The position numbers were made by a program, and so were the translations under genes. The notes under the pieces were generated by a model, which was not told the origin of the DNA, made no database searches, and worked only from the letters and a program-made list of their open reading frames with translations. Of a stretch of DNA of 64,000 nt, positions 6,979 to 64,000 are shown one piece after another. The DNA is from an archaeon (GTDB lineage: Archaea; EX4484-52; WAPT01): the NCBI GenBank assembly GCA_029258795.1, contig JAPDKB010000002.1, positions 50,822-114,821 on the forward strand, in the 5' to 3' direction. Positions within the stretch are counted from its first letter, which is position 1. Every line of letters begins with the position of its first letter.

Positions 6979-7819
6979 GATTCATAACAAAAACAAGAGC
7001 TTTCTCTATTCCATCATCCAATTAATTTCCCATAAATTCAAAAACGAAGAAAATTTTTTCATGTTCTTAAAACCGCGAAACTTTCTGTATCTGTTCCTGA
7101 GCCATGAGATCAAACCTTCTGCCCTGTTATTGCTAAGAAAATAAATCATACCTTTATGAAAAACAATCTTTTTTTCAAAATGAGCTATAACACGCTTAAT
7201 CTTTCTAATTCTTAACCCCTTTCTCAGGGTTTTACTATCATATCCATACCATCCATCCGTTACTATTATCTCAGGTTTGTATCCCGCATTCTCTATAGCT
7301 TTTCTAAGCAATCTAACAACTTCTTTGCTTTCCCTTCTATCACTAACATGCATTGCCATAATTCTTGATCTTTCATCGCAGCAAACATAAAGATAGTTCA
7401 TTCTTCCCTTAGCTTTAACATACATCTCATCCAAATGCCATACCTCTGCAATTTTTTCAAATTCCTTATTCTTTGCCTTAAGCTCTTTGAGAAACTTTTT
7501 ATCCTTTCCAAATTTATGTATCCAGTTAAGAACAGTTCTTGCAGGAACTCTTATTCCTTTAAATTTTTCCATAATCTTCTCAACATCATAGGTTGAAACA
7601 ACAAATCTTGAGTAAAGCCACAGGCAAAGCATAACAATCTCTTTATCATATCTTATCCTCGCAAATTCGTCCATACCTTTTTCTGAGAAAACGTAGAAAC
7701 ATTTTTTGCATCTGTATCTCTGGTATTTCTTATCTTTATGTTTGTAAAAACCCAGCTTCCATATATCTCTTGATGAGCATCTGGGACATGAAATCTTCAT
7801 GAATTTTTTATTATGAATG
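6979..7819. mobile_element. IS6-like insertion sequence (~840 bp) with imperfect terminal inverted repeats
   Basis: Left end ATTCATAACAAAAA (~6980-6993) versus reverse complement of right end ATTCATAATAAAAA (~7805-7818), 13/14 match, bracketing the transposase ORF 7006..7800. Confidence 0.5.
7006..7800 (-). CDS. DDE transposase, IS6-family-like, with N-terminal zinc finger
   Basis: 264 aa; CPRCSS...YRCKKC zinc ribbon; DDE region WHLDEMYVKAKGRMNYLYVCCDERSR...IIVTDGWYGYD resembles the IS6 DETYVK..G..YL..A.D motif (IS1-like is an alternative). Confidence 0.7.
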   Translation of the reverse strand: MKISCPRCSSRDIWKLGFYKHKDKKYQRYRCKKCFYVFSEKGMDEFARIRYDKEIVMLCLWLYSRFVVSTYDVEKIMEKFKGIRVPARTVLNWIHKFGKDKKFLKELKAKNKEFEKIAEVWHLDEMYVKAKGRMNYLYVCCDERSRIMAMHVSDRRESKEVVRLLRKAIENAGYKPEIIVTDGWYGYDSKTLRKGLRIRKIKRVIAHFEKKIVFHKGMIYFLSNNRAEGLISWLRNRYRKFRGFKNMKKFSSFLNLWEINWMME

Positions 7820-7826
7820 AGGTTAT

Positions 7827-8726
7827 TTATATGTTTTTTGGCGTAGAACCCATTAATTTCTCTATTACTGCCAGAGTTTTCCCTATTAAATTTGTTTTTA
7901 AATTAAGCAAAAATTCGAAAAAGCTTACCCATAAGCTAAGATATTTCTTGCTTATCCCCCTAAACACCCTATACCATGATTTTAAAAAAGAAAATCTATT
8001 CTCTGCATTGTTAATATGAACATTGCCTTCCGCAAACCTTTTCTTGTTATGCGGGATTATTCCATGTTTATAACCTTTTCTCTCTATTTCCTTTGTATAA
8101 ATAGGAAAGTCATCAGTATTTACTATAGAGCCTTTCTCAACATAAGTTTCGAGTAGCTCTAAAACAAGCTCTTCACTTAAGCCTTCCAGAGCTACGAAGA
8201 ATATGCTCTTACCTTTTCTTTCAGTTAAAACTATGACTGGAGTTTTGCCTTCTTTTAGCCCACCTCTACCTTTAATTCCAGTTCCACCCCTCTTCATAGG
8301 CTTTCTAGAAAGCCTTCTATTACCCTTTTCACCAGCTGTTAGATAGGTTTCATCCATCTCAACATTAACTTTTAGCTTGGAAGCTATTTGCCTTGCAAGC
8401 AAATCTTGCTTGATTTTCTTAGCTGCTTTCCAAACATGCTCATATTTTCTACCAAGATCGATTGCTATTGAATAAATGCTTCTTCCAGCCGAATGCTCTT
8501 TTATTATATAAGACCATTCCCAAATCGGTAGCTTTGATTTATCGAATATCGTTTTGGTTCTATTGTTGAAAGTTCTTTTGCATTTTTTGCAAAGATAGCG
8601 TTGAAAGCCTTTCTTATCCTCACCCCTCTTAACAACCTCCTTTGACCCGCAGAAAACGCACCTTACTCCTTCTTTCCATCTAAGCTTTTGGATTATTTCT
8701 ATGCACTTCTCATCACCTGGGGGCAA
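7827..8726 (-). CDS. IS1595-family-like transposase
   Basis: 299 aa; N-terminal zinc ribbon CVFCGS...QRYLCKKCKRTF; DDE motifs VEMDETYLTAGEKG and VNTDDFPIY; C-terminal NAENRFSFLKSWYRVFRGISKKYLSLWVSFFEF typical of IS1595/ISH4. Confidence 0.7.
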   Translation of the reverse strand: MPPGDEKCIEIIQKLRWKEGVRCVFCGSKEVVKRGEDKKGFQRYLCKKCKRTFNNRTKTIFDKSKLPIWEWSYIIKEHSAGRSIYSIAIDLGRKYEHVWKAAKKIKQDLLARQIASKLKVNVEMDETYLTAGEKGNRRLSRKPMKRGGTGIKGRGGLKEGKTPVIVLTERKGKSIFFVALEGLSEELVLELLETYVEKGSIVNTDDFPIYTKEIERKGYKHGIIPHNKKRFAEGNVHINNAENRFSFLKSWYRVFRGISKKYLSLWVSFFEFLLNLKTNLIGKTLAVIEKLMGSTPKNI

Positions 8727-8820
8727 AATCTCTTGCAGTCAGCATACATTGTTATTTTATAGTTTTCTATTTTCGTTATGAGATGTGAGCGAAAGCTTTT
8801 TGTAGTTGATTTTTTGAACT

Positions 8821-9636: not shown

Positions 9637-9756
9637 AGGCCAATTAATGACCTTCTTTGTATTATTCGTTCTCTTGTGTCCTACTGCATACGACATTCTA
9701 TCATCGAGATACTCTCTAAAATTCTATAGTAGTAACCAACTTTTGAAAGTTCACAT

Positions 9757-10685: not shown

Positions 10686-10843
10686 TAAGTCTCATTATGC
10701 TTTTTTAATTATAAAATTTACGGCTCCAAGCGGCTTCGAGACAAAATTCATAGCTTGAGTTTTCGAGCTATGAAGATCAGAACTCCATACCACAAAAATT
10801 AGTTAGCTAAAACATTTCCGTATAAAAAACCATATTATACAGC

Positions 10844-11848
10844 ATGGGGGATAAAAAGAAAAGAAAAATAACAACCGAGGAAATAAGAGACATTACAAAC
10901 AAACTTGATAAAATAATCAAATATTACAAAGAGAAATACGGGGAAGATAAGAGCAGGAGAGACTGGCGTACATATGAGCAGAGAAGAACATTAAGGATGA
11001 AGCAGGCAGGGAGAGAGCTAAAAAATCTTATAGAAAGGGCTGCAGAGAATATAGAAATAGCTAAGGATAACAACAGGGGAAGAAAGCCGAAGCTTACAGC
11101 CAAGGACAAAGCCCTGATCATTCTTATAAAGGAAATATTCGATCTGAGCAACAGAGAACTTGCTGATATGATATTCATCTTTTCCTTAATGGCAGGAGTT
11201 GATGTAAGTTATAAAACCATTGAGAGAGCTTACGATGATGAGCTTGTTAAGTTAAGCCTGCACAACTTATTCGTTCTCATGGTTAAGGAAAAGATTATAG
11301 ATGATGTTGAGCTTGCTGGAGATGGAACTGGATACAGCTTGAGCATTAAGAAGCAATATGCTGATATTGAGGATGAGGGAAAGCAAAGAAAGGATTTCGT
11401 TTATTACTTTGCTCTGCTCGATTTAAGAACAAATCTTTATGTTGGATATGGCTACAGTAAAAGGTCGGAGAGGGATGCTTTTGATAAGGCCATGAAAATT
11501 ATGAGTAAGCTCGGCATTAATGTTAAGAGTGTGAGGCTTGATAGATATTATTCAAGCAACGCTGTGGTTAAAGAATATTTTGATGATAAGGATGTTAAGC
11601 TTTATTTAATTCCCAAGAAGAATGCTTCTGTTAAAGGCTGTAAGAAATGGAAGGAAGTTATGCATGGCTTTGCTGATGATGTTTACGGGTTTTTGCGTGA
11701 GTATTTTAAAAGGAATAAAGTTGAAAGCATGTTTTCCTTTGATAAGCGTAAGTTTTCTTCTCGATTAAGGGTCAGGAAGGATGAGAGAATTGCTACGAGC
11801 TTGCTTGCAAGGACTGTCTTGCATAATTTGTTTTGGTTTTATGGTTAG
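10844..11848 (+). CDS. Putative DDE-type transposase (family uncertain)
   Basis: 334 aa; lysine-rich N-terminus with HTH-like region, LAGDGTGYSL and later acidic motifs; sits among IS elements; family assignment not verified. Confidence 0.45.
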   Translation: MGDKKKRKITTEEIRDITNKLDKIIKYYKEKYGEDKSRRDWRTYEQRRTLRMKQAGRELKNLIERAAENIEIAKDNNRGRKPKLTAKDKALIILIKEIFDLSNRELADMIFIFSLMAGVDVSYKTIERAYDDELVKLSLHNLFVLMVKEKIIDDVELAGDGTGYSLSIKKQYADIEDEGKQRKDFVYYFALLDLRTNLYVGYGYSKRSERDAFDKAMKIMSKLGINVKSVRLDRYYSSNAVVKEYFDDKDVKLYLIPKKNASVKGCKKWKEVMHGFADDVYGFLREYFKRNKVESMFSFDKRKFSSRLRVRKDERIATSLLARTVLHNLFWFYG

Positions 11849-11923
11849 CTATTGGGTTAATTTTGTCCCAAAGCCACCACAACCACAAACTTTATATACG
11901 ACGATCGCAATATTTCTATCTGG

Positions 11924-12952
11924 GTGATTTGGATGGCGGAGAATTCTCCTAATTACCGATATGATCCTCTCATAGGCGAGCTTTACTTGAATAAAATCTC
12001 GTGTGAGTTAACAACCAGAAAGTTTCACAATGACTTGAGGAGGGAGTTCGAGGCCATTCTGGGCGCGGTAGCTAAATCCATGTTCTACACGGTGGGTAAG
12101 GTAACGGGCATGATTGTTGCAAAGTACTTTGATGATATTGATGTGCTTTCGTGGATGGGTTGGGGTGTGCCTCTGGTTAAAAAAGATGGAAGCGTGGAAG
12201 TTAAAAATTCTTACATGACCATGTATCGGAGCGAGATAGGCAAGAAGTCATGCGATATCGTTGCAGGATTTCTGGCAGGGTGGTTCAGTAGGAAGGAAAA
12301 GGATAATGTCGATTTTATAGAATCGAGGTGCGCCTCAACCACTAAGTTCAAGACCTGCAGGTTTGAAAGGGTTGAAAAGAATGTGGCTGTCGAAGTACCT
12401 AAAATCAGGATGAAGAAGCCCAGAGAACACCTGAAAAATGTGAATATAAACCTGAAACCATCCAGTGGTGAGATAATTTATAGGGGAGATTCGTCTCTCA
12501 TCATTCCACGTGGCTTTACCGCGATCTTTCAGAGGGAATTTGAAAGGGTGATCGGGGCTGTTGCTTCCAGAAAAATGTACGAAGTTGTGAAGAAAATAAG
12601 TTATGAGGCAGTTGTGAAGGAGCAGGGGTTCAGGTTTATTGGACTTGCTATTCTTCCCAAATTCATCCGTGCAAAGCTGCTTCTTCATGAAGAGCTTGTG
12701 CAGCTACCCGAAAGAGGTTTTGGGAATGTCAGGGTTTTAAGACTGGATTTGAAGGAAGGGATTCTGCTGGAAATTGATAATTCTTACAACGCATTCACCT
12801 ACGGTAAGGTTGGCAAGCCCGTGTGTCACACGCTTGCAGGAGTTCTTGCGGGAGGTGCCAAGGCGGTGATTGGCGGAGATTGGGAATGCGTGGAGAATAA
12901 ATGCGTTGCTGCAGGAGATGGTGTCTGCGAGTTCGAGTTGAAGCCGGCGTGA
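11924..12952 (+). CDS. Tandem V4R domain protein
   Basis: 342 aa; two repeats ending in V4R-like Cys motifs (CDIVAGFLAGWFS...CASTTKFKTCRFE and CHTLAGVLAGG...WECVENKCVAAGDGVCEFEL). Confidence 0.55.
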   Translation: MIWMAENSPNYRYDPLIGELYLNKISCELTTRKFHNDLRREFEAILGAVAKSMFYTVGKVTGMIVAKYFDDIDVLSWMGWGVPLVKKDGSVEVKNSYMTMYRSEIGKKSCDIVAGFLAGWFSRKEKDNVDFIESRCASTTKFKTCRFERVEKNVAVEVPKIRMKKPREHLKNVNINLKPSSGEIIYRGDSSLIIPRGFTAIFQREFERVIGAVASRKMYEVVKKISYEAVVKEQGFRFIGLAILPKFIRAKLLLHEELVQLPERGFGNVRVLRLDLKEGILLEIDNSYNAFTYGKVGKPVCHTLAGVLAGGAKAVIGGDWECVENKCVAAGDGVCEFELKPA

Positions 12953-34361: not shown

Positions 34362-35120
34362 ATGGCGAGAACAAGGATAAGAAGGGTGAAGTTCGGGATT
34401 CCGGGACTGGATGAGGCGCTTGGTGGTGGCATACCTAAAGGAAATGCTGTGGTGCTCTCAGGTCCACCAGGATCAGGAAAGACCATTCTGGGTTTGCAGT
34501 TCTTGATCAACGGAGCAACCATGTTTAAGGAGCCGGGAGTTTACATCACTCTGGAGGAAGAAAGAAAGGATGTTGTGGATCAGGCATCCGTTTTTGGATG
34601 GGATCTGGAAGAACTGGAGAAGAACGGCATGCTTAAGATAGTGGAGCTGAGAAGGGAGGACATTCCGACCTTCCTGAACGGATATCTCGATGAGCTCAAG
34701 AAAAAAATGAATCCCGCCAGAGTTGTTGTGGACTCGATAACCTTTTACTACGCTTACGCGCTCCTCCACACCTACACCAAAGAGTACATAAAGACGCAGC
34801 AGGAGCTGCTTTTACATGATGGGGACCGGATGACACATCCAATGGTGGCAAGAACGACCATAATGGATCTCGTGAGAAAATTGAAATCGATGGGTGTGAC
34901 GTCTTTACTCACTTCCGAAATTCCGGGTAGCTCCCGCTATTACACTCGAGATAAGCTTTCAGAGTTCATAGCAGATGGTGTCATCACACTGCACTCTGTG
35001 GAAGTTGGAGAAAAGAACTTCAGAAGCATAAAGATAGTCAAGATGAGGAAGACGGGTCACGAGTTCGGGTACATTCCATTTGAAATCACATCCAAAGGCA
35101 TAGAGATCAGAAAGATGTAG
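34362..35120 (+). CDS. KaiC-like RecA-superfamily ATPase
   Basis: GIPGLDEALGGGIPKGNAVVLSGPPGSGKTILGLQFL (KaiC/RadA-type Walker A context); Walker B-like VVVDSITF. Confidence 0.7.
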   Translation: MARTRIRRVKFGIPGLDEALGGGIPKGNAVVLSGPPGSGKTILGLQFLINGATMFKEPGVYITLEEERKDVVDQASVFGWDLEELEKNGMLKIVELRREDIPTFLNGYLDELKKKMNPARVVVDSITFYYAYALLHTYTKEYIKTQQELLLHDGDRMTHPMVARTTIMDLVRKLKSMGVTSLLTSEIPGSSRYYTRDKLSEFIADGVITLHSVEVGEKNFRSIKIVKMRKTGHEFGYIPFEITSKGIEIRKM

Positions 35121-44319: not shown

Positions 44320-44946
44320 TTGGGTGAGATGAAAATGCCATCTCGTAGAGCAATTAAAGATGAAGAATACGAAATACCCTATGATGATTATGAAGTAATG
44401 CCTATAAATCCGTTGCGCAGACTTGAGAAAAGGTTGGAAGCTCTGGAGGAGTCAAGAACACTCTCCAATCTCGAAAGATTTATAGACAAGATAATCGATA
44501 TGACTGAGCTAAATCAAAAGATTGTTGAGGAGGTTGTAAGGTCTAATCAGGGTTTGAGAGAAGAGATTGAAGTGCTTGTGGGCAAGCTGGATAAGCTTGA
44601 GGAAAAAATAGAGCAGTTCGTGGACATTTTGAAAATGCTTGGTGAGGAGGAAGCCAGAAGTGGTGGAGAGGAAGTCATGATGAAGATTGCAGAGAAATTT
44701 GATGATATCGCCAACAAAATAGCGGAGAGTAACACAAACGTTCTGCAGGCTTTGACATCCATCGATAAGCGTCTGAAGAAGCTCGCGAGTGAAGGGTCAC
44801 ACATCCACGCAATGCACAAGCCGTCCGCACCACCCGCATCTCCGGCACCACACGGAATGGGGTCGGGAATGCCGCCCACTCCATCAGAATTTGGAGCACC
44901 CCAACCAACCTCTCCAGGTCCTACTCCTCCACTCAAAAGAATATGA
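44320..44946 (+). CDS. Coiled-coil protein with proline-rich C-terminus (hypothetical)
   Basis: 208 aa; coiled-coil core and PSAPPASPAPHGMGSGMPPTPSEFGAPQPTSPGPTPP tail. Confidence 0.45.
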   Translation: MGEMKMPSRRAIKDEEYEIPYDDYEVMPINPLRRLEKRLEALEESRTLSNLERFIDKIIDMTELNQKIVEEVVRSNQGLREEIEVLVGKLDKLEEKIEQFVDILKMLGEEEARSGGEEVMMKIAEKFDDIANKIAESNTNVLQALTSIDKRLKKLASEGSHIHAMHKPSAPPASPAPHGMGSGMPPTPSEFGAPQPTSPGPTPPLKRI

Positions 44947-44952
44947 TAAGGG

Positions 44953-45165
44953 GTGATGATGATGGATAAGCAGACGAAAAAAATAATAGAATCGATTGAA
45001 TATTTCGTGCTTCTGCTGGCTCTGGCCATGATAGGTGTGCTGATGGGTATGATGAGTGTTGTGCAGAATCAGCAGGATATGCTCGTGATAATTTCGATGA
45101 TGAATGTGATGGGAATACTGCTTGCGGACATGTTGCTGTTCAAGATTTACAGAGAGAAGAAATGA
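44953..45165 (+). CDS. Small membrane protein (hypothetical)
   Basis: 70 aa with two hydrophobic helices, between the coiled-coil gene and the pilin genes. Confidence 0.3.
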   Translation: MMMMDKQTKKIIESIEYFVLLLALAMIGVLMGMMSVVQNQQDMLVIISMMNVMGILLADMLLFKIYREKK

Positions 45166-45184
45166 TAATTGAGAGGTGGATTAA

Positions 45185-45646
45185 ATGATGAGGAAAGGTC
45201 TGACGCCTATCATAGCGATGGTTTTGCTTTTAATGCTGGCTATAGCCGCAGGAGGTATGCTTTTTGTTTTTGCACAAAAGATGCAGTCGAGTTTACAGGA
45301 AAATGTCCAAAAAGAAATGTTGTCTGAAGCAGAGAGGCAGGCGATGAGGGTTGCTATAGTTAGTGTCTACAAGACAAGTGAGGGTAAAATTGGTGTGGCT
45401 GTAAGAAATATAGGAAGGAAAGATATTCCTACAGATTACATAAGTCTTTATCTAAATGGACAACCCGTATCCGATGTTACCTTCAATTGCGACGGCACAA
45501 TTCAAGTTTTTAAAACCTGTGGATTGAAATTAGACAACATGGACTTTCCGGGAGATGGTGAGCGGTTTACTATCAGAGTGGATGCTCCCGGGAACACTGA
45601 TACTAAAGTATGTAAATCAGAGGGCGGGATGTGCGTTCCTCCATAA
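45185..45646 (+). CDS. Archaeal type IV pilin-like protein (class III signal peptide)
   Basis: MMRKGLTPIIAMVLLLMLAIAAGG: RKG followed by hydrophobic helix is the prepilin-peptidase substrate pattern. Confidence 0.6.
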   Translation: MMRKGLTPIIAMVLLLMLAIAAGGMLFVFAQKMQSSLQENVQKEMLSEAERQAMRVAIVSVYKTSEGKIGVAVRNIGRKDIPTDYISLYLNGQPVSDVTFNCDGTIQVFKTCGLKLDNMDFPGDGERFTIRVDAPGNTDTKVCKSEGGMCVPP

Positions 45647-45658
45647 ACCTTTTATTTT

Positions 45659-46315
45659 GTGGTGTTGAGTATGAGGCCGAAAGCTCAGGTTCAGGCAGTT
45701 TCCTATGTATTGGTGTTGGGAATAATCTTAGCCACGGTATCAGCAACCTATTTTTGGGGGTTACCCCTTCTTCAGAAAGGAGAGGCGACAAGCAAGCTCG
45801 AATCTGCAAAAAATACAGCAATGGAAATAGCAGACACTCTTAATGATGTTGCTACAACTGGCTCTCAGAAAACCCTGACCTTTAATCTTTACGGGATGGT
45901 TAAAATAGATCCAAACGATAATTCCATTTATTACATTATCAGGTCTCAAAAAAGCCCCTATGCCCTGAATGTGTGGATTCCGCTGGGTAGTGATGAACCA
46001 CATGGTGTGAAAGGTACGGAATGGGAAAATTCAACCGCGGTTTTGGGTCAGGATCCACCAGCAACTGTTCTTGTCAGGGCTGAAAGGTATGGTTCAGAAT
46101 ATGTTATTCTCTACAGGATCGCATTTAGAGAACTTTACGATTTGGATAGTGGGGAGAGTTATTATTATAATCTAACAGCAGGAGGTAATACTCAGGTGAC
46201 GGCAGGAAGGGCCACATTAACTCTTACTAAAGGAGAACCAACAAGAAGTGGAAGCAACAGTTTAGGCGGCAAAAGGATAAATGTACCGATCTATGCAGGA
46301 GTGAATTCTGGATAG
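45659..46315 (+). CDS. Pilin-like protein
   Basis: N-terminus MRPKAQVQAVSYVLVLGIILATV fits a class III signal peptide (K-A then Q and hydrophobic stretch). Confidence 0.45.
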   Translation: MVLSMRPKAQVQAVSYVLVLGIILATVSATYFWGLPLLQKGEATSKLESAKNTAMEIADTLNDVATTGSQKTLTFNLYGMVKIDPNDNSIYYIIRSQKSPYALNVWIPLGSDEPHGVKGTEWENSTAVLGQDPPATVLVRAERYGSEYVILYRIAFRELYDLDSGESYYYNLTAGGNTQVTAGRATLTLTKGEPTRSGSNSLGGKRINVPIYAGVNSG

Positions 46316-46332
46316 TTTTTTTTAGTTTTAAG

Positions 46333-46767
46333 TTGGTGAGTGAATTGAAAAGAAAGGGTCAGACTTTAACCCTAGAACAGGTGCTCGTTTTCAGTATAGG
46401 TATTACTATGATTATATCTCTTTTAATTTTAGTTTCCAATATTTATCAGCAGTTGGGGAGAGAAGCCGATGCCGTAATGGGAGAAACAACGCTCATGTAC
46501 ATTTACGCTGCAGCAAGCCAGCTGGATAAAGAATCATTGCAGAATTACATAAAGATTCCACTTCCAACAACTTCCACATTTAGAGATTACCGAATAACAG
46601 GGATGGGAGAACTAGGTATAGGAATAGAATTACCCACCTATTCCATCGGTCTGCATTTATCGCTTCATGGAATTAAGGGCTTTTACGGAGCGGTTGAGAG
46701 TGATGATAAATATGCTGTGATTTCGACTGGTGGGGGTTCTCAATTTGTGGGGATCTCCCCACCATAG
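46333..46767 (+). CDS. Pilin-like protein
   Basis: N-terminus LKRKGQTLTLEQVLVFSIGITMIISLLILV (KG-Q class III signal pattern). Confidence 0.45.
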   Translation: MVSELKRKGQTLTLEQVLVFSIGITMIISLLILVSNIYQQLGREADAVMGETTLMYIYAAASQLDKESLQNYIKIPLPTTSTFRDYRITGMGELGIGIELPTYSIGLHLSLHGIKGFYGAVESDDKYAVISTGGGSQFVGISPP

Positions 46768-51425: not shown

Positions 51426-51854
51426 ATGATGGCAAGGAAAGGTATATCTCCATTGATAGCGGTAGTGTTGCTCGTGGTCTTTACAGTGGGTATTAGTGTA
51501 GTGATATCCAGCTGGCTGAGCAGCTATGCCAAGCAAACCACAGAACAGGCAGGACAGGGCACACAGCAGGCCATAGAGTGTGCAAAAGCTGTGGTTGACA
51601 TAACCGATGCAACGAACAACGGCGTGTTTGTGGCAAATGTGGGTGCTACAGACATAACGGTTACGAGATTATACCTCTACGACGATAACAACAATATCTG
51701 TTCGCAGGATGTGAATCAGAACCTCCAGATAGGAGAAGAAGTGTACATCAACTATAACTTCACAGGATGTCCTGCAGGCTTTAACAGCGCAGCACTAACA
51801 AAGGTCAGAGCAGTGACGAACTGCCCAGGAGTAACAGATGAATACACTTACTAA
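51426..51854 (+). CDS. Archaeal type IV pilin-like protein
   Basis: MMARKGISPLIAVVLLVVFTVGISVVI class III signal peptide. Confidence 0.6.
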   Translation: MMARKGISPLIAVVLLVVFTVGISVVISSWLSSYAKQTTEQAGQGTQQAIECAKAVVDITDATNNGVFVANVGATDITVTRLYLYDDNNNICSQDVNQNLQIGEEVYINYNFTGCPAGFNSAALTKVRAVTNCPGVTDEYTY

Positions 51855-51984: not shown

Positions 51985-52105
51985 CCCGCCGTAGCTTAGT
52001 CTGGTAGAGCGCTCGGCTGTAGGTCTGTGCCGCGTGGTATGGCGCAGCCACGCAGCCAGTTGCTCAGAAACCGAGAGGTCCCCGGTTCGAATCCGGGCGG
52101 CGGGA
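51985..52105 (+). tRNA. tRNA-Tyr (anticodon GTA) with canonical anticodon-loop intron (~47 nt)
   Basis: Acceptor CCCGCCG/CGGCGGG+A+CCA; D-arm GCTT-AGTCTGGTA-GAGC; anticodon stem CTCGG...CCGAG with CTGTAG then intron; intact T-arm CCCGG-TTCGAAT-CCGGG. Confidence 0.75.
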
Positions 52106-52432
52106 CCAAATTGAAAATGCTAGATTTTTCATAACAAACATGTATTCAAAATCCAATCGGTAATTTTTTATAAGTAAAAATGAACGGATATGAAAGGGGA
52201 TTTGAACACTTCTGACTGTTCAAGAAATATTCTGAAAAAGATTAGAAATATTTCCACCTTATCTATGAGACCACAAAACTTATTAAGCACTTTTTGACGA
52301 ATTATGAGAAAAGCTAGTTATTTAGAAGTGAATAACTCATTTTGTAAAGGACTCCCCACAAAAGAAATTAGAAACACAGAGGGAAAATTAAACATTTTTT
52401 ACAAATGGTCTATTAAGTAATGAATGAGGAAA

Positions 52433-53863
52433 CTACCCAAAGGGTGAGTTAGGAATATTCAGCTTTTTGTACAAATATGCGCAACTTTCTCCTTTACATA
52501 TTTCTTTTATAATTTTTAATGAAGAGTCGTTACACCTGAAAAATGCTATCTTATATTCAATTGGAGATTCTAAAAATTCTTTCTCAGAATATACCACATG
52601 TATCTTTTTATTTGAATAGAATGCAATTGGAGGACAATTTCCAATACAGACAACTTCAGGAATATTAGTGGTGTTGAGATAGAGACCCATTTCTTTAGTA
52701 ACATATCTTAATCCTTGCTCAAATTCTATTTGAGGAGTGTAACATCTTTGGTATTGTGTAATTAAAAAAGAAAATGAAAACAGAATAAAAAATGAAAATA
52801 TAATAAAGAATATTGGGCGATCCAACTTAAAATATTTTCCAAACTCTACAAAAAAATAAGATATGAAACACACTAGAAAAGATACCAGAAGAAGAAAAAA
52901 CCTTTCTACTTCCCAAGGAATTGTAGGAGGCTTCGCAACATTTCTAAAAACTATACTTGAAGAGTATACAAATAGTGTCAAAGAGGCATAGATTAGAATA
53001 AGATTATATTTTCTTTCATATGGAGATAATTGTCTGTTGAATATTTTTTCTTTCATAAAAATAAGTATTCCAAGAAAAGAAAAAAGCACAAAACCAGTTC
53101 CTAGAGAATCGTTAAAAAGATAAACTAAAAAACTAAGCTCAGACTTGTCTCCTTCGGAAATTACATGTGATGCCTTTATGAAGGTATAGAAAGGGTTTCC
53201 AAATTTTAGATAATTGAACAATATATACGGTAACATTCCCATGAAAAAGATAAAAATGAAGAAAAATATCTCTTTTATTTTCTTTCTTCTAATTAATTCT
53301 AGAACTAGTGGCAATATTAGAACCCAAATCAAAAGATTTGTGAATTTCATCAAAACTGCTAAACTCAAGAACAATGCACTTGCATAAATATGTACTGGGT
53401 TTTGGTTTTTTGTTCCATAATACATAAGAATGAAACTCATTAAACCAAGAACACACGCGGGATGATCTGTAAGGACATACCTACTGTGGAGTATGCTAAG
53501 CGGAAATATCGCAATAAGAGAGGAACTAAATCTTGCAACTCTTTCATCAAATAATTTACCTAAATAGTATACAGGAAAAACAATTAAAGAATTAAAAAAG
53601 GCAAGAAACACTTTAGAATATACGAGATAATTTTGTGGAGATAATTTCCATATAATGGCTAAGAATAGAGATATCAATGGAGGCCTTAAAGAGATTTCTT
53701 CATACCCAATTTCTTCCCCTCCAAATAATTTTCCGTGGAGTAAATATACGGCTTCGTCCCATATCACATACGTTGTATCTATAAATGTGAGTCTCAAAAA
53801 TAAAGCTATTCCAAAAATAAATAGGAGGAATGTCACATCCTTTCTGCCCATCTTCAATCTCAT
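52433..53863 (-). CDS. GT-C type glycosyltransferase (PMT/ArnT-like, family 39/83-like)
   Basis: 476 aa, polytopic; N-terminal YVIWDEAVYLLHGKLFGG...RPPL motif typical of PMT_2/ArnT; strongly AT-rich gene. Confidence 0.55.
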   Translation of the reverse strand: MRLKMGRKDVTFLLFIFGIALFLRLTFIDTTYVIWDEAVYLLHGKLFGGEEIGYEEISLRPPLISLFLAIIWKLSPQNYLVYSKVFLAFFNSLIVFPVYYLGKLFDERVARFSSSLIAIFPLSILHSRYVLTDHPACVLGLMSFILMYYGTKNQNPVHIYASALFLSLAVLMKFTNLLIWVLILPLVLELIRRKKIKEIFFFIFIFFMGMLPYILFNYLKFGNPFYTFIKASHVISEGDKSELSFLVYLFNDSLGTGFVLFSFLGILIFMKEKIFNRQLSPYERKYNLILIYASLTLFVYSSSIVFRNVAKPPTIPWEVERFFLLLVSFLVCFISYFFVEFGKYFKLDRPIFFIIFSFFILFSFSFLITQYQRCYTPQIEFEQGLRYVTKEMGLYLNTTNIPEVVCIGNCPPIAFYSNKKIHVVYSEKEFLESPIEYKIAFFRCNDSSLKIIKEICKGESCAYLYKKLNIPNSPFG

Positions 53864-54090
53864 AATAGTTTGTTTTTCGTTCGTTTAAATTAATTATAAT
53901 TATCACGGAAATTATCGACCTGTTCTCTGAAATTCAATTTATGGGATAAATGATATTAATTGAATCTAGATTTTTGGAGATGACAAAATAAAATAAATTC
54001 GTAACGATTAAATCCAAGAGGAGAGGATAAGAGTGCTGGCATTATGATATAATTACCAGAAGTAGGTTTAGAAGCGCCTTCTCATTTTCA

Positions 54091-55852: not shown

Positions 55853-55973
55853 AGCCCCGGCCGGGATTTTCATGGAAGATTACTCGACCCTTAAAGCGGC
55901 GTCGAGCAGCCATTTTGAACCCGGGACCTCTTCCTTACCAGGGAAGCGCTCCACCAGGCTGAGCTACCGGGGC
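55853..55973 (-). tRNA. tRNA-Thr (anticodon GGT) with T-loop intron
   Basis: Reverse complement: acceptor GCCCCGG/CCGGGGC+T+CCA; D-arm GCTC-AGCCTGGTGGA-GAGC; anticodon arm CTTCC-CTGGTAA-GGAAG; T-stem CCGGG...CCCGG split by ~45 nt. Confidence 0.7.
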
Positions 55974-56034: not shown

Positions 56035-56814
56035 TCAGGCTGCAAGGGCTTCTATGAAAAGTGCAGCCAGCATGAATATGGAAAAGGACGCTCCCAAAAC
56101 ATAACTTTCCTTTGCATATTTTTCGGGGTCAAGCAACATTTTGTAAGCACAGTAAAAAAGCACAGCCATAAAAATAGCTCCAACCTTCACATGCACCATC
56201 CCGAACAACTTGACCGGGAGCAGAAGGATTGTTCCGCCCACGAAAAGAAAAATAGAAGCCACCATGCCCGTAATTTTCTCACCGTACAGCGCTGAGAGGG
56301 TCTCATAGCGGTATTTATCAGTATCTAACGACACCTCCCACATGAGTTCCAAAGCCGCGAAAACGAAAAATATGGTAATGCTGAGCAACGCAAGTGTTTC
56401 ATTTATTCCAAAAACAGAACCTCCAGCCAGAAAGATCAGAGCTGCTGCAAAAGAGCGGAGGATGAAAGATAGCCATTTATCTCGGAGCAGAAAGTGAAGC
56501 ATACTCATCACAAAGAGGAGCGAGTATAACAATCCAGATGTTGTGGAGATTGTGAAGAACATGAGGATCATCGCAAATGGAAGGGCGAGTAACGCAATTC
56601 CGGGAACCCATTTGAACTTTTCTCCGTTTCTCATTCTTGAATCCAGAATGATGAGGAATCCTATTGAGATCAGACCCAGCGGAATCACATGCAGCGTGTC
56701 CCTCACACCAATTCCGGAATTTCTTGCACTCACCAAAGCACCAGTAATGAATAAAGAAAGAGCAAGAAGCATCTTTTCTATTGTGTGTCCATTACTGCTT
56801 TCAGCATCGTCCAT
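56035..56814 (-). CDS. Polytopic membrane protein (hypothetical)
   Basis: ~260 aa with at least 7 hydrophobic helices; ATG at 56814 inside ORF 56035..56832. Confidence 0.45.
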   Translation of the reverse strand: MDDAESSNGHTIEKMLLALSLFITGALVSARNSGIGVRDTLHVIPLGLISIGFLIILDSRMRNGEKFKWVPGIALLALPFAMILMFFTISTTSGLLYSLLFVMSMLHFLLRDKWLSFILRSFAAALIFLAGGSVFGINETLALLSITIFFVFAALELMWEVSLDTDKYRYETLSALYGEKITGMVASIFLFVGGTILLLPVKLFGMVHVKVGAIFMAVLFYCAYKMLLDPEKYAKESYVLGASFSIFMLAALFIEALAA

Positions 56815-56847
56815 GATCCCCACTCTTTCCAAATAAAATAGCAGGAA

Positions 56848-57101: not shown

Positions 57102-57689
57102 TTATGGCTGTCCTTTTTCATGTTTCTCATTCCTCACCAGCTTCTCAAGCTCATCGGACCAGCTAACCGATCCAATTTCGTACTCTTCCTCTTTTACCCC
57201 GCGCTCAAGGAGAGCAAGCATAACTTCCACCACGTCATCAGGCGGGGTGGATGTGGTGTCTATTTCGTAAGCCATTTTCCATCTTTTCAAGTGATACGCT
57301 TCTTGAGTTATCACATCCAGTATCTCCGCCTCAACGTTTTCCCTGATTTTTTCCGGACCCCATCCTTTCGCTTCAAGACGTTTTCTAAGTTCATTCGGGT
57401 GGCACCTTAGAATGAAAAGAGCATCGACCTTTATGAAGTGCGCCAGGTGTCCCTCTACCACAACATGTCTGGAAAGGTTAGCCTTTTCCAGCGCGTTTTC
57501 CAGCTTTTCAACATCAACAATATAGCATTTTCTTTTCTTATCATAACCTTCTATTGCTTTAAGTTTCTCAGCAAGCTCATTAACTTCAACTACTTTCCAT
57601 CCCAGCCTTCTTGCAAGTTTTTGGGCAAGAGTGGTCTTACCAGTTCCGGGAGTGCCTGTTATCCCGATGCTTTTTACGTTCACATCCAT
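57102..57689 (-). CDS. Putative adenylate kinase (AK6/Fap7-like)
   Basis: Walker A IGITGTPGTGKTTLAQKLARRLG near N-terminus; ~190 aa; first ATG at 57689. Confidence 0.6.
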   Translation of the reverse strand: MDVNVKSIGITGTPGTGKTTLAQKLARRLGWKVVEVNELAEKLKAIEGYDKKRKCYIVDVEKLENALEKANLSRHVVVEGHLAHFIKVDALFILRCHPNELRKRLEAKGWGPEKIRENVEAEILDVITQEAYHLKRWKMAYEIDTTSTPPDDVVEVMLALLERGVKEEEYEIGSVSWSDELEKLVRNEKHEKGQP

Positions 57690-57697
57690 AGACGTTC

Positions 57698-59911
57698 TCA
57701 ACCTCTTATTGTTTGAAAAATGAGCTTGATGATTGTGTTCAGCTGTTGAATTAATTCAGATAATAAGGTGGAAATGTTTTCTTTCATCTGACCGATGAAA
57801 ATGCGGACCCCATTACCTTTCAATTCTCCCCGCCACACAACTTTTGACCCCACTTCATCAAAACATACAATCTCAGCGTTCTTTCCGGAGAGAGGCGCAT
57901 CTATCATCACTCTGTTATCTCCAGCCAAAAGTTTGTTAGGGATGGGAACATAGTTTTTGCCATCAACCAAAACACTCAGATTGTGACATACATTGTTGAT
58001 GGAAATTAACAGGAATGTTCTGTTATCGCGTGCATACACATCTTTAACTTTCATCTCAGTCTTCTCTATGATCTTGTATACAACGGGTATGGCATCAACG
58101 ACCTCATCATTCATTAGGAGCTTCACCCAAACCATTCTTTCACCAGTTCCTCTGGGTTTGATGTTTGCCTCAAGCTCATTTTTACCATTTTCGAGTTTGA
58201 ATTCTTCAGCACCGATTTTGATGGTTAGATTTTGGGCTTTGGAAGGGTTGAAAATCTCAACTTTGATGGTGATCTCGCTTCCGTTATACACAGTACTGGG
58301 ATGGAACACACTACCAATGTACGGAAGCTTAACATCGCTGGTGGTGTAGCTTAGCACTTGATAACCACCATGTTCATCGAACACAAACATCCTCTGGGAT
58401 GGAGTTTGGGGGAGGTAAAATATTCGAGACTCACTTTGAAGATCATAAGATTCCAGCATGACATCATTACCCACATATAATTTGAGGGGAGTTACACACC
58501 CTTCTGCGTTCACAATAACACCCACATCCGCATTACTTTGCACCTCTTGCCTGAGAAGTGATGCACGCCAGCATTTTGCATGCGGTTTTTGGAGCGGTGA
58601 TACTTTAATTTCAACCGGCAGGGCTCGTGGTTCAGTGTAGTATGTGTTGAGCGTGAGGGGGCAGATGTATTCGTAGTGGGGGTCCAGCTGATTTGAGGCT
58701 TTGACGATCCAGTAGTGGTATGCATTCTTTCCCGCCGCTTCCGTAACATATGCTGTGCTGTCCTCAATTTCCAAAATGCTGGCGCCTTTACATGGCAGAA
58801 GAATGAGTTTATCCACTTTTGTCGTGGTTGGAGTTATCTTAACCCATACAACACCCGAGCCACCAAGAGGTAAGGTTAAAGGGGCAGCGTACAGCGCAAC
58901 ATCATCTCTTGGAAACTGCTTTTCAACCAAGCTTACTTCAAATTGGGGTTCTTCCGAGTTCCAGTTTATATCTCGTATGTTGTACCCTTCCACTTTTATG
59001 TTGTTCGATATCTTGTTGTCCAGATACGATCCCATATATATGTGGGTTGCATCCACATTACCCACTTCAAGCCATAAGACATCCACGGGAATCCATCTAT
59101 CACCCACATAGACCTCTGCTATGGCATGACTTTCCCATCCATTTTTGCCAAAAGCATAAACATGAGCATATCTTGCAGGAATGCCTATTGCTCTTGCAAG
59201 CGCTATGAAAAGGGTTGTATATTCAGCGCACACACCTCTCCTGTTTTTCAGAACCCACAACGCATCTTTGTTTTCATCAGCATATCCCTCATCATACTCA
59301 ACATTTTCGTTTACCCAGATAGCCAACGCTGCAACCTTCTCAAAATCATTTGTGGCATTTTGCGTTAATCTCCGGGCCAGCGATCGGATTTCGGGGGCGT
59401 TGCTTTGAATGTTCTCTGTCGGCAGGAGGTACTGCTGAATTTCTGCAGGATATGCGCTACCGATTAGATTGCTGCTTTCCAATGGGTGTTTCACCTCAAA
59501 GGATTTCGAAACCACATGAAACTTGAGTTCATATCTGTAAGTGTTGGGCGGATTCTTTATTTTCAGGCTGCATATTGTGTTCCCATCCTTATCCTTCAAC
59601 AACTCACATTCCGAAGGGTATGAAATTACGTTCTGCCATTTGTTGCTGTAAGGTATGCTCAGGTTGATTTCGAGAAGTTTACCTTCTCCATGAAAGCTTA
59701 CCTCTCCTTTAAACGTGATCCACGCATCCAGCTCTGACACATACCTTGCCTCAGTTGAATTTAAAACAACATTTTCCCGAGCCAAGGATAAATTGCTCAC
59801 AAAACTCAGGAAAATCATTGCTGCAAAGACGGATAAAATGGAGATGTTAATCCATCTACGGTTCCAGATAACAGATTTAAAAGTTAAGCACTCACTTACT
59901 ATCATACGCAT
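57698..59911 (-). CDS. Secreted transglutaminase-like domain protein
   Basis: 737 aa; signal anchor; catalytic-core-like GVCAEYTTLFIALARAIGIPARYAHVY...HAIAEVYVGDRWIPVD (Cys-His-Asp). Confidence 0.65.
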   Translation of the reverse strand: MRMIVSECLTFKSVIWNRRWINISILSVFAAMIFLSFVSNLSLARENVVLNSTEARYVSELDAWITFKGEVSFHGEGKLLEINLSIPYSNKWQNVISYPSECELLKDKDGNTICSLKIKNPPNTYRYELKFHVVSKSFEVKHPLESSNLIGSAYPAEIQQYLLPTENIQSNAPEIRSLARRLTQNATNDFEKVAALAIWVNENVEYDEGYADENKDALWVLKNRRGVCAEYTTLFIALARAIGIPARYAHVYAFGKNGWESHAIAEVYVGDRWIPVDVLWLEVGNVDATHIYMGSYLDNKISNNIKVEGYNIRDINWNSEEPQFEVSLVEKQFPRDDVALYAAPLTLPLGGSGVVWVKITPTTTKVDKLILLPCKGASILEIEDSTAYVTEAAGKNAYHYWIVKASNQLDPHYEYICPLTLNTYYTEPRALPVEIKVSPLQKPHAKCWRASLLRQEVQSNADVGVIVNAEGCVTPLKLYVGNDVMLESYDLQSESRIFYLPQTPSQRMFVFDEHGGYQVLSYTTSDVKLPYIGSVFHPSTVYNGSEITIKVEIFNPSKAQNLTIKIGAEEFKLENGKNELEANIKPRGTGERMVWVKLLMNDEVVDAIPVVYKIIEKTEMKVKDVYARDNRTFLLISINNVCHNLSVLVDGKNYVPIPNKLLAGDNRVMIDAPLSGKNAEIVCFDEVGSKVVWRGELKGNGVRIFIGQMKENISTLLSELIQQLNTIIKLIFQTIRG

Positions 59912-60907: not shown

Positions 60908-61002
60908 TACTGCTCCTCAAAAGACCTCTTCTTTTCTTTTTAATCTTCGTGTCAAAATAAAATAAAAAGAAAGAGAAATTCAGTGCTTGCCCTTTATCTC
61001 GT

Positions 61003-61467
61003 TTAAGCGTACTTGCCGCTCAAGGTTCCTGTGTTCGCTATATCCTGAGTAAATCCTTCAGGTGTGTAGTATATTGTTGTTTGCAATGTGTAGCACTTTC
61101 CTTCCTTTGCATCGGAAATAGTTGCTGACCCCGAAATAACCGCTTTGCTTCCTGGCTGTAGGTTGGTTCCTCCGTTTATGTTCGTTACCTCAACATCACC
61201 CAGCTTCACTCGGGTGATATTCACCACTCTATCCATTCTGTTTTCCACTTCAATCTGAAAAGTCACTGTACCGGTATTGTCAGCATCCAAGGAAAATGTC
61301 CCTGTAGGAACAACTGCATTCACCATTTCAAAGCCATTCGCTCCTCCCGGTCCACAGGCCCTGTTAGAGAACACTTGGGTATAGAGTAAAGCACCCACTA
61401 TTGCTATCGCTAGCAACGCCCAGCCATACGTCATTAAGTATTCGGTTGCTGCCTGACCTTTTCTCAT
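61003..61467 (-). CDS. Archaeal type IV pilin (class III signal peptide)
   Basis: MRKGQAATEYLMTYGWALLAIAIVGAL: KG-Q cleavage motif with hydrophobic helix. Confidence 0.65.
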   Translation of the reverse strand: MRKGQAATEYLMTYGWALLAIAIVGALLYTQVFSNRACGPGGANGFEMVNAVVPTGTFSLDADNTGTVTFQIEVENRMDRVVNITRVKLGDVEVTNINGGTNLQPGSKAVISGSATISDAKEGKCYTLQTTIYYTPEGFTQDIANTGTLSGKYA

Positions 61468-61561
61468 GCTAACACCTCCTAAGAGCTGCTTAATGTTTTT
61501 ATGCCATAAACCCCTATATAAATCTTTTCCGCGGATATCTTCTCATTCGACAGCCAACTAA

Positions 61562-62611
61562 TTACAATATGATGCTGAATATCTTTTCCATAACCTTTAT
61601 CGTGCCATAATATATGCTGAGCGAAAGGATTATGAAGGGAGGTATGTATTTTATTGCCTCTTTTGCAGAACCGTTCTGAATTATGGAAATCAGTATGCTG
61701 GCGAATATTATGTTTATGACCAAACAGAGAATGGAGAAAATGGAAAAGCTATGGACATCCAGCTGAACAGGTTTCATGGTTATGAACCCTCCTCCCAAGA
61801 ATTGAGACGCTTCCTCCCCTATGGTTACACCACCCCACACAGACGTTGTGGTGGATAACAACACATTAGAAATCGCGAAAAGAAATGGAGCTGCTATGAC
61901 TCCTGCTATGAATATAAACATCATGTACATGGAAACATTCGACCTTATTTCCCGCTGGAGCACCTCAGCAGTCCTTAAATCGTTGGCAGTTTCCTCAAGC
62001 AAATTTGCTATTGTTCCACCTGATTTTATACCTTCAAGCAGCAGTTTTACTGTTCTTTCAAGGGATACAGATTTTACTCTATTAACCAGTTTTTTAAACG
62101 CCGTGCCGACATCCTCTCCTCCATAAATCTCGAATGCGACCTTCTTAAACTCCTGGGCAAGCTCCCCAAACTCGGGACGGGAAGCGAAAAGAATGGCACG
62201 GTCTATGGTAAGCCCTGACTTTATGTTGGCCGCTATCAGCATCAGGATGTCGGGAAGCACCGCTTCCATCCTTTTTCTTCTCCCCTCAGCCATGTAGGTG
62301 AAGAGAAGGTAAGGTAGGTAGTATCCGAAGGGAAGCATGATGAATGAAGGAATCAGGGCAAGATGAATCGGTACATGAAATGTAACGAAAAGAACAGCAC
62401 TTTCTATCAATCCCACGAGCCACATTATGAGAATTAAAGCTCCACAAAAAACACTTTTATCTCCCTCTATCCCCGCATATATTTTTTCTTTTTCAATCTT
62501 TTTCCTGTATTTTCTTGGCAGATAAGAGTAGAAGGTGTACGCTATATCCTTTAAATTCTGTTTTACATTCAATTTCCTTATCTTCCTGTGTGTGAATTTC
62601 AATTGCTTCAT
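61562..62611 (-). CDS. Pilus assembly membrane platform protein (T2SS-F domain, TadC/FlaJ-like)
   Basis: 349 aa polytopic; central cytoplasmic domain AVLPDILMLIAANIKSGLTIDRAILFAS...LLEGIKSGGTIANLLEE. Confidence 0.55.
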   Translation of the reverse strand: MKQLKFTHRKIRKLNVKQNLKDIAYTFYSYLPRKYRKKIEKEKIYAGIEGDKSVFCGALILIMWLVGLIESAVLFVTFHVPIHLALIPSFIMLPFGYYLPYLLFTYMAEGRRKRMEAVLPDILMLIAANIKSGLTIDRAILFASRPEFGELAQEFKKVAFEIYGGEDVGTAFKKLVNRVKSVSLERTVKLLLEGIKSGGTIANLLEETANDLRTAEVLQREIRSNVSMYMMFIFIAGVIAAPFLFAISNVLLSTTTSVWGGVTIGEEASQFLGGGFITMKPVQLDVHSFSIFSILCLVINIIFASILISIIQNGSAKEAIKYIPPFIILSLSIYYGTIKVMEKIFSIIL

Positions 62612-63471
62612 ATTTTCACCGATGGACGTTTACTTCTAACCACCTGAACGAACATGTACTGAAAGACGAGCAGGGTGAACAAACCCACCGCAAGCATACT
62701 CTTATCCACCACCAAACCGACAAATGATGAAAGTATCATGAGGAAAGTTATGCCCAGCGAAGGCACGATTATCCCGAACATCATGTACATCAGGGTCCAT
62801 GGGTTGAGTTCCTGTCCGTATTTCTTTATCGCGATGAGCTGCTCTTTCAAAATTTCATCCACCACTGCTTCAAGCGATTTGGTGAGGTCTGCTCCGGTCT
62901 TCACGGCAGTGAGCAGCTGCCACAGAGCCCTTCTTAAAGGGAGAGACGGATTTTTGGATATGCTGTCCTCAAGCGCTTCCACCTGACTCTTACCGGCATT
63001 TATGTTCTCGATTATATGTCTGAACTCCTTTGACGCTTCTCCATACCCTTCGGAGACGGCAACCATGGCATGGTAGAGAGGCACACCCGCTTTAACCTGA
63101 ATCAGCAAATGCCTCAGAGCGTAGGGGAGATCCTCCTCTATCTTTCTGCCGCGCTTTCTCACGAGGAGTCGTGGATAGTAAAGTGAGGAATAGAAGTTGA
63201 CCAGAAAAAATAGAGGATATGAAATTAACCCCACTTTTATGATGAGGTTATCCTGCATTATAATTCCTCCAAGCAGAATGATGGTGCCAATCATGAATGA
63301 AGTATATACACCTTTGTAAAGCGAGACGGCTATATGCTCAACCAAATTAAGCTTTGATCTGGCTTTGACGAGATCGGCATTGAGATGAAAGAGGGATGGC
63401 TCGAGCTTCTTTGCAAGCGGAAAGAACTTCCTCGCTTTTTTGAGCATTATCTCATCATCGACACGAGGCAT
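62608..63471 (-). CDS. Pilus assembly membrane platform protein (T2SS-F domain, TadB-like)
   Basis: 287 aa; EDLPYALRHLLIQVKAGVPLYHAMVAVSEG...LLTAVKTGADLTKSLE; 4-nt overlap with the downstream paralog. Confidence 0.55.
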   Translation of the reverse strand: MPRVDDEIMLKKARKFFPLAKKLEPSLFHLNADLVKARSKLNLVEHIAVSLYKGVYTSFMIGTIILLGGIIMQDNLIIKVGLISYPLFFLVNFYSSLYYPRLLVRKRGRKIEEDLPYALRHLLIQVKAGVPLYHAMVAVSEGYGEASKEFRHIIENINAGKSQVEALEDSISKNPSLPLRRALWQLLTAVKTGADLTKSLEAVVDEILKEQLIAIKKYGQELNPWTLMYMMFGIIVPSLGITFLMILSSFVGLVVDKSMLAVGLFTLLVFQYMFVQVVRSKRPSVKI

Positions 63472-63477
63472 CGCACA

Positions 63478-64000
63478 TCACAGCGCTATAATTTTGAGTT
63501 CTTCAAGCAGGTCTTCGTCCAGAAGCACTCTTGGGTCTTCATCTTTCTGTGCCATCCTCACTATTTCCTCTTCATTTCTGTAGTATTCTGCCGTTATCTT
63601 GCCTATGGTGTTCACGGTTTTAATTCCATGTTTTTTCAACCACTCCAGAATCATCACTTTCTTTCGTATGTCTTCATCAATTTCTCGCTCAGTTAAGCCG
63701 GTGTAAAGATTTATCTCTCTGTAAATGCGCCAGCATTTGTTGAGCCGCTTAAAGGTATCATTTCCAGCATTCCATCTATAAATCACATTAAGACCAAGTT
63801 CCTTATCACCCGGCATTATCTCAACCATTTCCAGAGTTTTTCTAACTCCCAACCTCCTGTGACGGAACTGCACAACTATCATGTGCAGAGCACTGAGTAT
63901 GGAGGGTGGCAGTTCCATGGGGGGATTTGTGAGTCTTTTCACAACCTCCTCAGCCCTGTCTCCATGGAAGGTGGCGTAAGCGCTGTGACCCGTCCTTATG
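63478..64000 (-). CDS. Type II/IV secretion-family ATPase (FlaI/TadA-like), C-terminal part (5' end beyond window)
   Basis: Frame stays open to the window edge (...TGHSAYATFHGDRAEEVVKRLTNPPMELPPSILSALHMIVVQFR...), matching the C-terminal region of archaeal pilus/archaellum ATPases. Confidence 0.65.
   Translation of the reverse strand, partial: IRTGHSAYATFHGDRAEEVVKRLTNPPMELPPSILSALHMIVVQFRHRRLGVRKTLEMVEIMPGDKELGLNVIYRWNAGNDTFKRLNKCWRIYREINLYTGLTEREIDEDIRKKVMILEWLKKHGIKTVNTIGKITAEYYRNEEEIVRMAQKDEDPRVLLDEDLLEELKIIAL

Follow-up and report, generated by a model that had tools for sequence, protein, structure and literature searches.

In archaeal Epd-like pili and bacterial Tad pili, the membrane platform is encoded by two genes with a single T2SSF domain each, which have been attributed to the fission of a two-domain gene, and TadC and TadB are the equivalents of its N-terminal and C-terminal halves respectively (Denise et al. 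2019). Clade 1 and many of the clade-2 loci contain two tadC-like genes, and clade-2 ATPases occur in nanoarchaea (Makarova et al. 2016); the ATPase afGspE (AF0659) is classed in clade 2/arCOG01817. For DPANN archaea, loci of system 1 and subsystem 4A have been described with two platform genes, the minimal 4A system having, besides its two platform proteins, an ATPase and a pilin, and the platforms of system 2 are reported as single genes (bioRxiv 10.64898/2026.04.22.720090). Clusters of TadA, TadB and TadC were also annotated in genome papers on Nanohaloarchaeota and Undinarchaeota, one of which could not annotate the pilins, and cluster-2 DPANN have two conserved type IV pilus (T4P) loci associated with coiled-coil proteins (Hamm et al. 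2024). Cells of DPANN archaea are extremely small and mostly depend on a host, and their surface filaments are leading candidates for the means by which hosts are found and held. Here we describe a four-gene locus at one end of a 64,000-nt stretch of archaeal DNA (the window; contig JAPDKB010000002.1 of GenBank assembly GCA_029258795.1, positions 50,822 to 114,821 of the forward strand), which is very probably the central gene module for an archaeal type IV pilus (type IV filament) machine of a DPANN archaeon not yet in culture. This reading is based on the gene content, the domain identities, the paralogy of the two platform proteins, the conservation of the platform split and the architecture of the pilin.

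The four-gene locus and its two-piece platform

All four genes lie on the minus strand: the 3' part of an ATPase gene (63478..>64000; 173 codons, the remainder being past the window end), two platform genes with one T2SSF domain each (62608..63471, 287 aa, the N-half equivalent, and 61562..62611, 349 aa, the C-half equivalent), and a prepilin gene (61003..61467), which encodes a class III signal peptide in its 154-aa product and is separated from the second platform gene by a spacer of 94 nt. A first-pass annotation, which was made from the letters of the window, had read these genes as a partial FlaI/TadA-like ATPase, two consecutive T2SS-F membrane proteins with a 4-nt overlap and a class III pilin, all co-directional, and each part of this description was borne out. 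Profile searches support one T2SSE and two T2SSF domains in the locus. The cluster is far above chance expectation, given the strong E-values of its domains and a gene order kept in 71 relatives (see below).

The reading frame of the ATPase runs open from 63999 to its stop codon at 63480-63478. The part in the window extends from the His box (GHSAYATFH) through to this stop and corresponds to residues 349-521 of the 521-aa protein. This fragment alone gave sub-threshold Pfam matches (T2SSE, E=0.019; PilB3_C, E=0.0019). An exact-protein look-up found identical genes in two independent Logan assemblies (L001 and L002). The L001 contig has 0 mismatches to the window across the 6505 nt compared and reaches 9.5 kb past the window end, and the complete 521-aa ATPase is located at 8429-9994 of this identical contig. 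The upstream extension proposed in the first-pass annotation thus supplied the full ATPase, while the prepilin peptidase sought with it did not appear. The full-length protein matches Pfam T2SSE (8.5e-36) and contains Walker A (GTASGKT), Asp box, Walker B and His box motifs (residues 259, 282, 325 and 352). Among NCBIfam models the best match is FlaI (288 bits, against an equivalog cut-off of 550), and there are also matches to the TadA family (196 bits) and to BasE. The best solved homologue is afGspE (2OAP; 1.1e-70, 242 bits, residues 14-494), followed by FlaI (3e-58, 200 bits) and CpaF (4.5e-47, 164 bits). The product is recognisable from these matches as a pilus-assembly ATPase of the PilB/FlaI/TadA class (PilB/FlaI/VirB11). 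A TTAATATA box about 27 nt 5' of the ATPase ATG in L001 may be its promoter.

With FlaI as the best NCBIfam match and the second-best solved homologue, the locus might be regarded as an archaellum, i.e. a motility filament instead of a pilus, and a distant pilin-like gene (45185..45646) also weakly matches ArlF and ArlG. However, the FlaI score is far under the equivalog cut-off, and none of the ArlH/FlaH, ArlF/G (FlaF/G) or archaellin genes is found beside the ATPase. In addition, the platform is split here whereas FlaJ is a single gene, and the adjacent filament protein comes from a non-archaellin family, so that an archaellum appears very unlikely.

Each membrane ORF (open reading frame) contains exactly one T2SSF domain above the Pfam threshold (cut-off 25.2 bits), which is located at residues 118-241 of the N-half (2e-17, 63.8 bits) and at residues 124-247 of the C-half (1.1e-15, 58.2 bits). 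Hydrophobic segments flank the domain in both ORFs; the N-half has four of them, and its T2SSF domain is flanked by transmembrane hairpins. When aligned to the NCBIfam model of UpsF (484 positions), the N-half covers positions 35-252 and the C-half positions 264-460, and because of these positions the ORFs are taken as the N- and C-half equivalents in the order of the unsplit gene. The two halves are also homologous to each other (BLASTP, 5e-12), and hhalign comparison of their family profiles gave 99.6% with E=7e-24 over 226 columns. The likeness spans a transmembrane hairpin, the T2SSF domain and the helix after it, and by this similarity the two platform proteins are paralogues. PDB searches with the single sequences of the halves returned no match, and profile searches returned weak matches to PilC of M. 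xanthus (E=0.0036 and 0.1). The 4-nt overlap of the ORFs is ATGA at 62611-62608, in which the C-half start codon lies on the TGA stop of the N-half, and a Shine-Dalgarno (SD)-like GGTGA is found at 62620-62616, 5 nt 5' of the C-half start. Such an overlap would fit translational coupling of two subunits required in equal amounts.

For the relatives of the locus, one genome per species was scanned with the ATPase, which found more than 500, and the best 80 were analysed by searching their ORFs with the window proteins (ORF starts were set to the first start codon, and the lengths are therefore approximate). Almost all of the 80 are DPANN metagenome-assembled genomes (MAGs), from Nanobdellati (85% identity), Nanohal-, Aenigmat-, Micr-, Iain-, Woese- and Altarchaeota. 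It turned out that 71 of the 80 loci hold the ATPase and both platform halves, the latter always as two ORFs with their own start codons (about 290 aa and about 330-390 aa), and that none of these 71 has a fused platform gene; in the other nine, the contig ends too early or no pair is detectable. The halves meet with a junction of -4 nt in 21 loci, and most of the other junctions measure 0-11 nt. Generally, the halves lie directly 3' of the ATPase (51 loci), while 20 loci, Micrarchaeota ones included, have an insert of 0.25-4 kb between the ATPase and the platform genes.

Since the platform consists of two ORFs and is never fused throughout the 71 loci, its split is, by comparison of these sequences, an old and fixed trait, and neither a frameshift nor an assembly error. 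The two ORFs do sum to one two-domain platform protein in the UpsF mapping and abut with a mere 4-nt overlap, which would also be seen if a frameshift, a nonsense mutation or an assembly error had interrupted a single FlaJ/PilC-type gene, leaving a pseudogene or an artefact. However, the independent assemblies L001 and L002 give the identical sequence (0 mismatches), all 71 loci with both halves show two ORFs with own starts and varied junctions, the SD-like GGTGA precedes the second start, and the same layout has been published for Epd, Tad and DPANN systems. A broken gene is extremely improbable on this evidence, being effectively refuted by the conservation, and the split noticed in the first-pass annotation stands.

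The locus also looks native and vertically inherited, because its GC content (0.435-0.442) equals that of the rest of the window and its neighbour, the gene for the small subunit of replication factor C (RFC), also adjoins the locus in the relatives L033 and L042. The RFC small subunit and an archaeal signal recognition particle (SRP) RNA are archaeal signatures of the window.

Two further observations concern the set of relatives. Loci with an insert of about 0.5-4 kb (L048, L050-L059, L064, L067-L071, L075 and L080) are mostly from MAGs labelled Micrarchaeota, and in the other phyla the genes abut; the inserted genes could be lineage-specific accessory components. Besides, L011 (Methanosarcinales archaeon) and L045 (Candidatus Falkowbacteria bacterium) have non-DPANN labels and a DPANN-type ATPase (65% and 50% identity), and these are probably mis-binned contigs.

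The pilin, its family and the proposed machine

The prepilin starts with MRKG|QAATEYLMTYGWALLAIAIVG (the bar marks the cleavage site), which is a class III signal, and after the predicted cleavage (MRKG|Q) the mature protein would begin with QAATEYLMTYGWA and continue into a beta-sandwich domain. A total of 89 homologues were found in a large protein database, all of them unnamed or labelled "hypothetical" and none with a Pfam domain. In an alignment of 63 of the family's sequences (A1), Q5 (+1), A7 (+3) and Y10-A17 (YLMTYGWA) are invariant and E9 (+5) is nearly so. The N-terminal pattern of the family, G|QxAxEYLMTYGWA, recurs on pilin-like ORFs beside platform genes across DPANN phyla, and in 28 of 66 relatives a homologous pilin is encoded at most 300 nt downstream of the platform genes on the same strand. 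The G|xxxxEY within it (here G|QAATEY) is the pattern of the processing motif of bacterial Flp pilins, and Gln (+1) and Glu (+5) are also those of the EpdE pilin of Methanococcus.

We built an AlphaFold2 model of the pilin on the family alignment. In this model, which is confident (predicted local distance difference test, pLDDT, 88), an N-terminal helix at residues 4-33 is followed by a beta-sandwich of 7-8 strands. Foldseek comparison with PDB placed the pilins of S. acidocaldarius (Aap, 8q30) and P. arsenaticum (6w8u) in the top ten (E about 3-4e-3). As far as the model goes, the likeness to solved archaeal pilins is one of shared architecture and not of strong homology.

The pilin gene plausibly has its own archaeal promoter, as judged from the archaeal promoter consensus. 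A putative promoter at 61515..61530 (minus strand) comprises GAAAAG-ATTTATATA at 61529-61515, i.e. a purine-rich stretch resembling a B recognition element (BRE) and a TATA box, about 50 nt 5' of the pilin ATG, and a strong SD sequence, GGAGGTG, is located at 61479-61473. An oligo-T tract 3' of the pilin stop (60954..60978, minus strand) is likely an archaeal oligo-T terminator. A scan for sigma-70 promoters and terminators gave the same counts as shuffled sequence, and this model is inapplicable to archaea.

By analogy with the Epd, Aap, Ups and Tad systems, we propose how the machine would work. The 154-aa prepilin would be inserted into the membrane, and its short basic leader (MRKG|Q) would be trimmed by a class III signal peptidase encoded elsewhere. 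A hexameric PilB/FlaI-class ATPase would dock on the cytoplasmic T2SSF domains of the two-polypeptide platform, a heterodimer of paralogues whose N- and C-halves are probably made in about equal amounts through the ATGA coupling. Hydrolysis of ATP might then shift the platform in such a way that pilins exit the membrane and stack into a filament through their invariant hydrophobic N-terminal helices, with the beta-sandwich domains facing outward. The filament would most likely serve for attachment to a host cell or to a surface.

Several results weigh against this reading of the locus. The 154-aa pilin has no match to any Pfam or NCBIfam pilin model, and Pfam scans of all 63 family members gave no pilin, Class_IIIsignal or Flp family. 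The Foldseek matches to archaeal pilins are weak (TM-score 0.37-0.42), and generic Ig-like folds rank alongside them. For the processing enzyme, Pfam searches found no A24 prepilin peptidase among the multi-transmembrane ORFs of the window, a six-frame scan of the 64-kb window for the GxGDxK motif found no peptidase, and none turned up in the 9.5 kb upstream on L001 or in GxGD motif scans that covered 8 kb around the ATPase of 82 loci. With no A24 peptidase found in these regions, the processing of the pilin is assumed. As for the adhesive role, nothing in the sequence discriminates between uptake and adhesion.

The same machine might instead serve mainly for the uptake of DNA or nutrients, or for the penetration of host cells, and not for simple adhesion. 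The papers on Undinarchaeota and Nanohaloarchaeota propose DNA import via equivalent clusters, the conserved T4P loci of DPANN have been tied to coiled-coil proteins resembling viral attachment proteins (Hamm et al. 2024), and a coiled-coil gene (44320..44946) heads the other pilin cluster of the window. However, the locus encodes one ATPase only, with no retraction ATPase and no DNA-binding or translocation components, and the sole split-platform archaeal system studied by experiment, Epd, is adhesive. We consider such a main role possible but rather less probable than not, and adhesion remains the preferred function for the pilus machine proposed here.

Other genes of the window and its flank

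On L001, the ATPase gene is preceded by a 195-aa archaeosortase-family gene and by genes for a TrmB-family regulator, a DNA ligase, a Band_7 protein and an FtsZ/CetZ-like tubulin. The first of these (L001 7779-8366, 62 nt 5' of the ATPase) encodes a short-form exosortase/archaeosortase-family protein (TIGR04178, 5.6e-13), which reaches the cut-off of none of the named subfamilies; the regions of the Cys, Arg and His motifs are readable in it. The gene was considered as a system component or an alternative processing enzyme, but as a conserved part of the locus it was rejected, since a homologue is found only in the closest relative, L003, at 2.3 kb from the ATPase, and is absent in the 78 other loci. 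The gene also has a separate promoter context of its own. We noticed no obvious substrate with a C-terminal sorting signal for an archaeosortase in the window.

On the other side of the locus, beyond RFC and two genes downstream of the pilin, a minus-strand gene (57698..59911) encodes a 737-aa membrane-anchored protein with a transglutaminase core (2e-30). Surface peptidases that belong to the transglutaminase family are linked to clade-1 T4P loci (Makarova et al. 2016). However, this gene is near the locus in none of 80 relatives, and a role as pilus accessory is unsupported. Its 3' end overlaps the start of the ORF 57102..57701 by 4 nt, in which a P-loop NTPase motif can be seen by eye. Another candidate, a 9-transmembrane ORF (56035..56832) considered as EppA, was rejected, as it has no A24 match and no GxGD motif and gave only faint matches resembling UbiA/GGGP transferases.

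The four further pilin-like genes that had been proposed elsewhere in the window proved to be real. The gene at 45185..45646 encodes an archaellin/pilin domain at the N-terminus and weakly matches UpsA and ArlF/G, 45671..46315 matches DUF7289 (2.3e-8), 46333..46767 has the signal KRKG|QTLTLEQ, and 51426..51854 has a pilin N-terminal domain with a UpsA-like match. The first three belong to a second filament cluster on the plus strand (44320-46767), which is headed by the genes of a 208-aa coiled-coil protein (44320..44946) and a 70-aa protein with two transmembrane segments (together 44320..45165), and whose first pilin-like gene is FlaF/UpsA-like. Neither an ATPase nor a platform gene is adjacent to this cluster. 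It resembles the T4P loci associated with coiled-coil proteins in cluster-2 DPANN (Hamm et al. 2024).

Besides, a stand-alone single-domain KaiC/ArlH-like ATPase is encoded at 34362-35120 (plus strand; thermo_KaiC_1 2.9e-43, ArlH 1.5e-14). KaiC-like proteins accompany some archaeal T4P clusters; this gene lies 26 kb from the pilus locus, with no evidence of linkage. Rfam matched two tRNAs missed by ARAGORN, at 51985-52105 (plus strand) and at 55918-55973 (minus strand). The length of the first (121 nt) suggests that it holds an intron, and the second (56 nt; 30.2 bits, barely above threshold) may be truncated, split or atypical, as in some nanoarchaea. Finally, two stretches of low GC content, 6001-12000 and 52001-54000, have 0.32-0.36 in comparison with about 0.45 elsewhere. 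In the former, the ORFs 7006..7800 and 7827..8726 start, as seen by eye, with a Cys-rich sequence resembling a Zn ribbon, and the latter contains a PMT_2-like glycosyltransferase with eight transmembrane segments, adjoined by a CARDB/DUF11 surface protein. These stretches may have been acquired laterally or may be islands of surface variation.

Relation to known filament systems

The gene cluster is ordinary, and its two-piece platform is conserved and already published and not an oddity, so that the locus leaves the current understanding of type IV filament systems unchanged. It is a clean example of a minimal DPANN pilus machine, in which the split is an ancient fixed trait and not gene decay. 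The addition made here is modest, namely the explicit identification of a conserved, unannotated DPANN pilin family. This family has no Pfam or NCBIfam annotation and was missed by at least one DPANN genome paper; its identification aids annotation and gives work by proteomics and cryo-EM on cultivated DPANN something definite to look for.

The two-domain proteins UpsF, FlaJ/ArlJ and AapF have the same T2SSF repeat in single polypeptides of about 480-600 aa, whereas the repeats are in separate genes here. The clade-2 euryarchaeal systems (arCOG01817), whose signature pilins are those of arCOG02911 (PilA family), share with the locus the presence of two tadC-like genes, found in many of them, and they include afGspE, the solved protein that the ATPase matches best over its full length; by this best hit the ATPase would be a candidate member of clade 2. 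The Epd system of M. maripaludis (EpdJ/EpdK/EpdL and EppA; clade 1 of Makarova et al. 2016, "Epd-like" of Denise et al. 2019) likewise has two contiguous single-T2SSF genes. However, the Epd order is platform genes, ATPase and then a FlaH-like gene, in contrast to ATPase, N-half and C-half here, and the flanks contain no linked 9-transmembrane EppA peptidase, no FlaH/KaiC and no MinD-like ATPases. In addition, EpdE is a pilin without a globular domain, as is characteristic of Epd-like systems, whereas the pilin here has 154 aa and a modelled beta-sandwich. The best solved match, afGspE, would also argue weakly against a placement in clade 1.

The bacterial Tad/Flp pilus (type IVc) offers the analogy drawn in the first-pass annotation, a split of the TadB/TadC kind, which is apt and which the literature already draws for archaeal Epd-like and DPANN systems. 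Both have a platform of single-T2SSF proteins, a related ATPase (CpaF, 4.5e-47, and the TadA-family match of 196 bits) and a pilin N-terminus of the form G|xxxxEY, which is that of the Flp motif. These features might suggest a bacterial Tad system gained by horizontal transfer. However, the ATPase has higher bit scores with the archaeal afGspE (242) and FlaI (200) than with CpaF (164), and the secretin (RcpA), TadZ, TadV and other Tad accessory genes are absent from the 16-kb locus with its flanks. The archaeal pilin, with its large globular domain, is about three times larger than Flp (about 50-80 aa). What's more, conservation of the locus extends across DPANN phyla, its GC content is native, and according to the literature transfer went from Archaea to Bacteria. 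A transferred Tad system is thus highly improbable, and an archaeal pilus of native descent agrees better with the data. Tad also differs in layout, as its tadA-tadB-tadC order is permuted relative to the co-linear order of N-half and C-half here.

More speculatively, the DPANN order of ATPase, N-half and C-half, which is co-linear with the unsplit gene, and the globular pilin with a Flp-like N-terminus could be an ancestral or an independent product of the platform fission behind Epd and Tad, and the QxAxEYLMTYGWA pilin family could form a conserved DPANN host-contact filament; we regard this suggestion as doubtful.

The closest described systems are the DPANN loci named "Tad-like", system 1 or subsystem 4A (PMC9563170, PMC11291902, bioRxiv 10.64898/2026.04.22.720090), which share with our locus the DPANN host and a VirB11/TadA-class ATPase gene followed by two platform genes. 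No PilY-like adhesin gene is adjacent to the locus here. The minimal set of an ATPase, two platform proteins and a pilin is common to the published loci and to this one. The pilins of the published loci are unannotated or classed by arCOG, whereas the present analysis identifies the cognate pilin family and finds it conserved among the relatives.

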